From: a virus
Lineage: Duplodnaviria; Caudoviricetes
IMG/VR virus record: IMGVR_UViG_3300045285_000084
Span: 1 to 38,724 of that record
DNA: 38,724 nucleotides
Direction: 5' to 3' (one strand)
In this document: positions 35,594-36,521 of the stretch, one piece after another
Numbering within the stretch: position 1 is the stretch's first letter
Layout: the number at the start of each line of letters is the position of its first letter
Translations under genes and position numbers: made by a program
Notes under the pieces: generated by a model
The model's database searches: none
Seen by the model: only the letters and a program-made list of their open reading frames with translations
What the model was told of the DNA's origin: nothing

Positions 35594-36292
35594 TCAAATA
35601 ACAGGGTTGAAAAAACGGTGTAGCTCGCAAGCAGCTATAAAAAGCCTTATGTCTCTTTCTTTTTGGCTATACTCAATAACGCGGGCAGGGCCGCCGTTTT
35701 TATCGAGTATGAGCGCTATACGCCTAGCTACTGGACGCAAGCCGTTGGACTCAATGAGATAGTCATACGCGGCCGTTTGTAGCGCCCATGAGGGTTTAGC
35801 TATCTGAGGCGTTTTAATCTCAAGCAAGGTAAGGTGAGCTGGTTCGTCGCCTTTGAGTCTTACGACTTGGTCGGGCTTGCCACAGATGCGGTACTGCTCA
35901 GAGTAGAGGCGCGTTTCTTGGTGATGTACTTCTTGGACCATATCATTAAACCAAGCGATATAACTTTGGACGTACGGGCGACAGTCAGCTTCAATAGCGC
36001 TAGGCTCGACAAAATCAGCAGCATGCATGAGCCATAGTTTGGCGTATTCCTCGCAGTATTTGTGTACGCGCGTGCCGCGGTCCGCCGCATTAGCTAGCAC
36101 GTCCGGGTCTATAGCAGAAAAGTTGTTCCAAGGGGCTAGTATTTCAGTAACGCGCGCATACCCGGGCAAAATATTATCTTCTTTAAAATCTTCTTTTGGC
36201 TCAATATACACAATGTCCTCAAGGTTGGTGGGCAGGCGGCTTTTTGGTCGCTTGCCTCTTTTGTTGTCTTTTTGCGATAGCAGCGAGCTCAT
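35594..36292 (-). CDS. PD-(D/E)XK exonuclease (Cas4/RecE-like)
   Basis: RVTEIL, AADRGTRVH, E.RL, ICGKPD, LEIKT, LQTAAY. Confidence 0.85.
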   Translation of the reverse strand: MSSLLSQKDNKRGKRPKSRLPTNLEDIVYIEPKEDFKEDNILPGYARVTEILAPWNNFSAIDPDVLANAADRGTRVHKYCEEYAKLWLMHAADFVEPSAIEADCRPYVQSYIAWFNDMVQEVHHQETRLYSEQYRICGKPDQVVRLKGDEPAHLTLLEIKTPQIAKPSWALQTAAYDYLIESNGLRPVARRIALILDKNGGPARVIEYSQKERDIRLFIAACELHRFFNPVI

Positions 36293-36521
36293 ACTGTTTG
36301 CTCAGCGTGCGTATTCTAAGACTTATCTTTTCTAGTCTAACAGTCGCCACCCTTACTTTTCTCAGGCGGCTCAAGTTGAACGGGGCTGATCCGTTTATAT
36401 CGCTTCTTTTTTTACACAGAGCTATCTCAAAAGATATATCGGACGATATTTTAGTAAACTCTTTTAGAAGTATTTCTAATTCTTGTTTTAATTCTTCTAT
36501 AGCATTTAAAGAATTGGGCAT
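36219..36521 (-). CDS. Protein resembling the N-terminal domain of chlamydial histone-like Hc1
   Basis: RKVRVATVRLEKISLRIRTLS resembles Hc1 QRVRTESIKLEK.AKVYRKES (recalled, not searched); ATG 36521 with AGGT RBS. Confidence 0.55.
   Translation of the reverse strand: MPNSLNAIEELKQELEILLKEFTKISSDISFEIALCKKRSDINGSAPFNLSRLRKVRVATVRLEKISLRIRTLSKQYELAAIAKRQQKRQATKKPPAHQP

Follow-up and report, generated by a model that had tools for sequence, protein, structure and literature searches.

The minus-strand gene at 36219..36521 of a contractile-tail phage genome, studied here as a window of 38,724 nucleotides, very probably encodes a divergent member of a phage-borne subfamily of the chlamydial histone Hc1 that is characterized by a lengthened loop between its two helices. 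Our preferred reading of its function, to which we assign a probability of about 0.45, is that the product serves as a decoy subunit weakening the packing or silencing of DNA by Hc1, in a manner resembling H-NST.

The gene and its product

The gene extends from ATG 36521 to TGA 36219 and encodes a 100-aa protein (P0001), for which AlphaFold2 predicted a two-helix hairpin (helices at residues 4-42 and 50-92; mean pLDDT, 83). This agrees with an earlier sequence-only reading, which had described a 100-aa helical product with an Hc1-like motif; the motif corresponds to residues 50-78, and the Hc1 pattern given in that reading is consistent with Hc1 sequences from chlamydial genomes. Residues 15-37 of helix 1 (36396..36512, minus strand) correspond to Hc1 helix 1 (L3-A24), with approximately 12 extra residues on the N-terminal side. 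The loop (residues 43-49; 36375..36395, minus strand) is approximately 9 residues longer than that of Hc1, as judged from a register inferred from two profile alignments; the Hc1 GNKAA motif is replaced, and N49, immediately N-terminal of helix 2, is equivalent to Hc1 N28. In the Hc1-like helix-2 core (residues 49-78; 36288..36377, minus strand; net charge, +7), four of the seven invariant chlamydial columns are identical (N28, R36, R50, and S53), R34 is replaced by lysine, and A31 and K47 are changed. P0001 also keeps V35, T39, L42, E43, K44, and E57 of Hc1 helix 2, is additionally altered at G27, K51, and E52, and lacks the GNKAAxQRxR loop motif. A short basic tail (residues 79-100; 36222..36287, minus strand) of 22 aa, with six lysine or arginine residues and no acidic ones, completes the protein, the net charge of which is +11.

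A search of 5.8 billion proteins yielded a single close homologue (P0002; 92% identical), in which the tail beyond K93 is read in a different frame, so that the last residues are not conserved. A phmmer search of 1.84 billion proteins with P0001 returned P0001 itself and one 5048-aa match, which was rejected as spurious. Neither P0001 nor its two-sequence alignment with P0002 matched anything in IMG/VR, GenBank phages, or metagenome contigs, and the ESM Atlas feature search gave nothing usable for P0001 (best, 0.80) or P0002. One DNA sequencing run, possibly the source of the record, is identical across the gene; no RNA sequencing runs containing it were listed.

Direct comparison with Hc1

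Taken on its own, the likeness between P0001 and Hc1 is weak, and it gains significance through the syntenic relatives described below. Scans of P0001 against Pfam, PHROGs, and NCBIfam gave no Hc1 match, nor did PF07432 and the Hc1-like families phrog_31787 and phrog_31483 when run on the phage's own genome; P0001 stays below the PF07432 gathering cut-off of 23.5 bits. The lack of an Hc1 match by HMM search, named in the sequence-only reading as an outcome that would count against it, was thus literally observed for P0001, and its force was removed by the intermediate family. Profiles were also built from Hc1 genes of chlamydial genomes, 106 of the 121 sampled having such a gene. P0001 scored 6.4 bits on a 32-sequence profile (11 of 5000 shuffles as high; E, 0.38 among the 608 frames of the window) and 5.7 bits on a 176-sequence profile (30 of 5000 shuffles as high; E, 0.69 among the same frames). 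The corresponding scores of P0002 were 10.2 and 10.5 bits, reached by three and none of 5000 shuffles, respectively. With an ungapped helix-2 matrix, P0001 scored 17.6 bits, equaled by 1 of 3000 shuffles and by none of 1906 phage ORFs, and direct alignment with Hc1 in hhalign gave a probability of 31.8%.

The top match in a blind structure search of the ESM Atlas was an 86-aa cluster (64% viral, 14% PF07432) with a score below the tool's bar. Foldseek searches of viral and PDB structures with P0001 found generic hairpins, none with E ≤ 0.001, and a sequence search revealed no Hc1 relative among solved PDB structures. According to the models, the Hc1 N-domain consists of helices 3-25 and 29-56 with N28 before the second, comparable to helices 4-42 and 50-92 with N49 in P0001. 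A two-helix hairpin with an asparagine directly preceding helix 2 is therefore predicted for both proteins, the fold alone being generic.

A phage-borne Hc1 subfamily links the protein to Hc1

A profile of P0001 and P0002, run over 400 chlamydial genomes, marked 23 weak places in 21 genomes. The 15 loci that were fetched comprised nine syntenic relatives of 86-92 aa, four full chromosomal-type Hc1 genes, and two instances of noise. Each relative lies between a small hydrophobic ORF and an exonuclease gene, with divergent Cro-like and HNH genes, as in the window. On the 176-sequence Hc1 profile, the nine relatives scored 21.6-28.4 bits across nearly the whole domain; all nine matched Pfam Hc1 (best E, 4.9e-4), the first member at 19 bits. 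Because the Pfam matches lie below that family's cut-off, the subfamily is missed by annotation. The relatives aligned with Hc1 in hhalign at 95.6% probability over 55 columns with one 7-residue loop insertion, and with P0001 at 80.3% over 51 ungapped columns. Their profile, built without P0001, retrieved P0001 at an E value of 3.3e-6 as its sole match in 51 virus records. This chain of profiles, together with the same gene position, places P0001 as a divergent member of the subfamily, and N-domain ancestry common to P0001 and Hc1 is supported transitively through the intermediate family. The N-domain relationship suggested by the sequence-only reading is thereby upheld, although its word "mimic" suits the gene less well than a captured, diverged homologue.

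The subfamily was found in 10 of the 400 chlamydial genomes, four IMG/VR contigs, seven metagenome contigs (partly the same elements), and a free phage (L241), whose more divergent copy is approximately 1.4 kb from the exonuclease. In all 10 chlamydial genomes (of 400) with an exonuclease at least 51% identical to that of the window, a relative stands beside it, and chromosomal-type Hc1 is present in all 10 genomes carrying relatives. Six more distant free phages (exonuclease identity, 41-51%) included one with a clear copy, one with a weak copy, and four with none in the 2-3 kb of upstream sequence fetched. The relatives' profile identified no subfamily member in the 50 other chlamydia-type virus records, and PF07432 gave no match above its cut-off in 50 such records. 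The sparse presence in distant phages and the absence from these records indicate that the phage group can do without the gene, which is core to one phage lineage and accessory elsewhere. Five genomes with a terminase match and no relative (G155, G165, G256, G318, and G418) were considered as cases of gene loss and set aside, as the exonuclease match is also absent from them and no early module was present in the four flanks fetched.

Among 11 relatives, a set outside which P0001 lies, pN was lower than pS in 55 of 55 pairs (median pN/pS, 0.18), indicating purifying selection. A tree of 61 N-domains over 58 columns, made with a quick method, grouped the subfamily with chlamydial Hc1s of the short-tailed type, but its very long branches (3.6 and 6.7) do not allow an Hc1 donor to be named. 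A 71-aa ORF at L242:2716-2946 (plus strand), in the same position before the exonuclease, matches Hc1 faintly (9.1 bits; E, 0.05 among 761 frames) and is possibly a third, more eroded derivative.

Hc1 genes of phages are already in print. Moraphage and other phage PF07432 genes annotated as "histone H1-like" likewise encode an Hc1-family domain (PMC12619734, excerpt). The tail-less copies in L144, L145, and Flavobacterium phages are canonical domains of approximately 60 aa with the NKAA motif, whereas the subfamily of P0001 is remodeled and, unlike those copies, resides in hosts whose Hc1 is a developmental protein. The L144 copy (2194-2382, plus strand), with NKAA intact, lies behind a replication gene and is apparently a separate capture. 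Second, divergent tail-less Hc1 copies were seen in two chlamydial genome bins (L124:4213-4398 in G130 and L125:6170-6412 in G080) and may represent foreign contigs or mobile copies. Our literature search, the coverage of which is thin for subscription journals, found no description of the present subfamily.

Start site and upstream region

The start of the relatives aligns not with ATG 36521 but with ATG 36543, located 22 nt upstream in another frame, where a 30-codon basic ORF (36451..36543, minus strand) overlaps the 5' end of the Hc1-like gene. On the relatives' N-terminal profile, the nine codons from ATG 36543 rank first among 801 ATG-started 9-mers of the window, whereas those from ATG 36521 rank 500th. 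ATG 36543 is thus probably where translation originally began, although it no longer shares the frame of the gene, and the two frames meet near a T-run at 36513-36508. Since P0002 has the same N-terminal residues, a one-off assembly error is unlikely. The gene may have survived an ancient single-base indel by acquiring a new start, or it may be read through a +1 frameshift. Under both options helix 1 stays intact, and the better-spaced Shine-Dalgarno-like motif, judged by eye, is at ATG 36521. We also considered a -1 shift at the A-run in the upstream ORF, but discarded it because the resulting frame meets a stop only a few codons further on.

A terminator-like hairpin of 14 pairs with a T-run (36591..36621, minus strand) separates the Hc1-like gene from the upstream gene, and this insert is absent in all five relatives whose aligned DNA spans the junction. 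The frame-switched 5' end and the hairpin in front suggest that expression of the Hc1-like gene in this phage may be low. A promoter scan was uninformative (5 sites versus 3.9 expected). The upstream gene itself (36630..36812, minus strand) is a 60-aa ORF with a hydrophobic C-terminal stretch and corresponds in position to the gene that precedes the relatives; the two appear similar by eye in a DNA alignment, with a nonsignificant tblastn result.

The phage, its neighbors, and its host

The window carries the genes of a contractile-tail phage (terminase, portal, major head, sheath, and baseplate). A direct repeat of 152 nt (38573..38724, equal to 1-152) closes the contig into a circle of 38,572 bp, although the record is classed as linear and 93% complete. 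A replication initiator lies at 399-1361, and no integrase or ParA was found in the ORFs scanned. In accordance with the placement given by the sequence-only reading, the Hc1-like gene stands in a minus-strand block immediately before a nuclease, namely an exonuclease (35594..36211, minus strand; phrog_298; E, 6e-22) annotated as PD-(D/E)XK type in the Criblamydia record. Its likely start, deduced from the lengths of the relatives, is GTG 36211, 7 nt past the Hc1-like stop, while the listed ORF reaches ATG 36292. The same block ends in a RecT-like annealing protein (30888..31763, minus strand; phrog_561; E, 1.2e-15). On the divergent side, a small Cro-like repressor (36960..37214, plus strand) is followed by two HNH genes, an arrangement repeated in the relatives.

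The host is likely an environmental chlamydia with its own Hc1. In a search confined to chlamydial genomes, sequences 60-62% identical to the terminase were found at 15 places in 14 of 401 genomes, and the best plasmid match of the terminase is a circular 89.5-kb plasmid of Criblamydia sequanensis that also carries a relative; both findings agree with the chlamydial host assumed in the sequence-only reading. Another gene of the window has relatives in 10 genome loci, five of them titled Chlamydiae. Pattern scans with the window's terminase and exonuclease gave no matches.

The relative on plasmid 1 of the cultured strain C. sequanensis CRIB-18 (NZ_LK031773.1) is WP_176454833.1, which precedes a PD-(D/E)XK nuclease, is annotated as hypothetical, and is 35% identical to P0001 over 49 residues. 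Like the 86-92-aa relatives, it has the same lengthened loop and is flanked by a small hydrophobic ORF and the nuclease, with a Cro-like gene transcribed divergently. P0001 differs from these proteins in being more basic and longer and in its frame-switched N-terminus. The relatives reside mostly on contigs of 90-98 kb with metal-resistance cargo, whereas P0001 is found on a 38.6-kb phage circle. Three carrier contigs (G143:C6, G184:C12, and G331:C1) measure 91-96 kb, and the two tested were both circular. Across the relatives' elements (89-96 kb), a tailed-phage gene set accompanies cargo of the metal- and arsenic-resistance type, with the whole head-and-tail block present in G143:C6. These elements mostly resemble chlamydial phage-plasmids, and the plasmid of the cultured strain could be inducible. 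Genes forming a "phage group" on the Criblamydia plasmid have already been published (PMC7846284, excerpt; PMC4208316); a histone-like gene on it is not mentioned in PMC4208316, and the word "histone" does not occur in the excerpt of PMC7846284.

Predicted pairing with host Hc1

The N-terminus of Hc1 mediates dimerization, and its lysine-rich C-terminus binds DNA (PMC2848022, excerpt). The heterodimer model proposed in the sequence-only reading was examined with a relative (L158) and the Hc1 of the same genome (G143), since a stand-in host would have made a poorer test; the assignment of this pair to one genome depends on how an extrachromosomal circle was binned from a metagenome. The complex scored 0.70, whereas the best of three controls scored 0.01, on a measure for which 116 of 157 solved pairs, and 2 of 215 mismatched ones, attain the threshold. 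The runs agreed in at least 95% of contacts, with partner pLDDT of at least 83. The predicted complex is an antiparallel four-helix bundle in which invariant arginines cross (Hc1 R36 with phage R70, and R50 with R56).

These results support a heterodimer of the relative with host Hc1, although this outcome may simply mirror the Hc1 homodimer, since the test is also passed by near relatives of a genuine partner, and L158 is approximately 25% identical to P0001. With a helix-1 register chosen from the alignments, the interface positions that are identical or score at least 0 in BLOSUM62 in P0001 amount to 13 of 17 in helix 2 and 10 of 12 in helix 1, compared with 9 of 18 non-interface positions of helix 2.

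Proposed mechanism and alternatives

In the decoy scenario, the first step, the membership of P0001 in the phage Hc1 subfamily, is given by the profile chain and gene order, and the presumed host would be a chlamydia with its own Hc1. P0001 would then be produced as phage growth or induction begins, as suggested by its position in a block that diverges from the Cro-like gene and is coupled to exonuclease and RecT; the label "early" for this block refers to position. It would form an antiparallel four-helix heterodimer with host Hc1, as predicted for the same-genome relative and extended to P0001 by conservation. Because basic tail residues would be scarcer in mixed dimers and the loop would differ, compaction and repression could be weaker. 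Hypothetically, phage DNA, as well as the nucleoid of cells on their way into or out of the EB state, would stay open for recombination and transcription.

The precedent is H-NST, an oligomerization-only copy of H-NS on E. coli islands, which forms heterodimers and relieves silencing (PMC7074111, excerpt). In both cases, a mobile element would carry the oligomerization domain of a host chromatin protein with dominant-negative effect. The likeness is one of working, with no claim of common ancestry; the activity of H-NST was shown experimentally, whereas that of P0001 is predicted, and P0001 keeps a basic tail. The low charge of the relatives fits such a decoy: 15 of them have a net charge of +2 to +8, +2 on helix 2, and tails of 9-14 aa, whereas the 10 putative host Hc1s, from genomes carrying relatives, range from +12 to +30. 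Against it, knockdown of hctA and hctB in Chlamydia trachomatis did not prevent nucleoid condensation and reduced EB yield modestly (PMC13317200, excerpt), so that neutralizing Hc1 may change little.

P0001 itself (+11) stands near the short-tailed host Hc1s (+12 to +17), and its basic character means that it need not be a non-binding decoy. The sequence-only reading had proposed a dominant-negative copy without the long tail of Hc1. The pairing with Hc1 that this proposal needs is predicted for a relative; P0001 may bind DNA itself. Its short tail is real and differs from the long Lys/Ala-rich tail of HctA (approximately 60-75 aa in the long-tailed group), but it is not distinguishing, as 7 of the 10 putative host Hc1s also have short tails (16-26 aa, versus 62-91 aa in the other three). 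Moreover, tails of 22 aa or less occur in 39 of 176 Hc1-family proteins, a set that may include partial gene calls and contains four divergent or phage rows. Compared with Hc1/HctA (PF07432), P0001 is similar in its predicted two-helix N-domain, the heptad pattern of helix 1, and a basic C-terminal stretch, and it differs in being phage-encoded.

A self-sufficient role, in which an Hc1-fold homodimer binds DNA or RNA through the basic helix 2 and the short tail, is therefore the strongest alternative and a serious one, although less likely than the decoy reading. Such a homodimer, with or without mixing with Hc1, would cover phage DNA or, as Hc1 does, inhibit host transcription and translation, acting as a host shut-off or as a "stealth" silencer for the element. 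The charge and tail of P0001 would suit this role, and DNA-binding activity is present in H-NST itself (PMC7074111, excerpt). Tail-less Hc1 is normal in other phages and in cells, so that the domain can evidently function by itself, and genome compaction has been proposed for it in phages of other hosts (PMC12619734, excerpt). The equivalents of R36 and R50 are invariant in 17 of 17 aligned members, which would accord with nucleic acid binding, but both arginines lie within the predicted dimer interface. The weak charge of the 15 relatives and the difference in tail end even between P0001 and P0002 also argue against it.

It is improbable that the Hc1-derived hairpin has been repurposed for the exonuclease/RecT module or another partner through its longer loop, with no role toward Hc1 and possibly in decay in this phage. 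In all 10 elements from chlamydial genomes, the exonuclease directly follows the gene, a conserved loop 7 residues longer takes the place of GNKAA in the relatives, and here the 5' end is frame-switched behind a hairpin. Conversely, the exonuclease occurs without a nearby Hc1-like gene in the four distant phages mentioned above, the L241 copy is distant from it, and the Hc1-type interface is conserved.

Also improbable, by a shade more, is a developmental switch in which titration of Hc1 blocks or delays RB-to-EB conversion and keeps the host replicating during phage growth. The predicted heterodimer, the position in the early block, and the late rise of HctA as EBs form (PMC13317200, excerpt) are compatible with it. 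Delayed conversion, which the sequence-only reading had also raised, nevertheless appears to be the least likely outcome, as the hctA/hctB knockdown left condensation in place with a modest loss of EBs and showed its defect in the next infection cycle (PMC13317200, excerpt); furthermore, a relative is maintained on a plasmid of cultured Criblamydia, which forms elementary bodies (PMC4208316). A chance likeness to an unrelated helical hairpin, with which the missing database matches and the generic fold hits would agree, is largely refuted by the reciprocal profile chain and the identical gene position.

To return to the decoy reading, its boldest form would be a dedicated anti-histone of environmental-chlamydia phages and phage-plasmids, whose remodeled Hc1 pairing domain poisons Hc1 dimers and rewires EB/RB chromatin, here perhaps by way of a +1 frameshift; this form we put forward tentatively. 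If true, an attack on host chromatin like that mounted by phages and islands against H-NS would extend to phages of strictly intracellular bacteria. The gene would then be a previously undescribed means by which phages counter chlamydial chromatin, as well as a ready dominant-negative probe of Hc1. The developmental role of Hc1 has been reopened by the finding that knockdown did not stop nucleoid condensation (PMC13317200, excerpt). A natural, selected phage-borne variant, if it pairs as predicted, would be a tool for separating dimerization from DNA binding, and the unannotated copy on the plasmid of cultured C. sequanensis CRIB-18 makes the question testable now.

Other genes of the phage

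An ORF at 6754-7224 (plus strand) has a weak F-box-like match (E, 5.3e-4, below the cut-off), with no match in the related regions fetched, and is flanked by ORFs with coiled-coil and hydrophobic C-terminal stretches (6158-6757 and 7237-7746). The ORFs of 6158-7746 may be cargo directed at the eukaryotic cell, carried by a phage whose host is an intracellular bacterium. The N-terminus of an ORF in the replication region (2479-2856, plus strand) weakly matches a DnaJ domain (E, 0.004). On the minus strand, 32606-32782 is a basic ORF of 58 aa that has a hydrophobic end and no family match, and related elements conserve it (48-73%, tblastn). Also on this strand, 33607-33819 encodes a Phd/YefM antitoxin (E, 2e-8), and no toxin was recognized adjacent to it. 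A small membrane-anchored coiled-coil gene at 33335-33610 (minus strand) belongs to an unnamed family with 260 IMG/VR matches, many on contigs of 30-40 kb, and with matches in chlamydial genomes; this family marks a large set of probable chlamydial phages.
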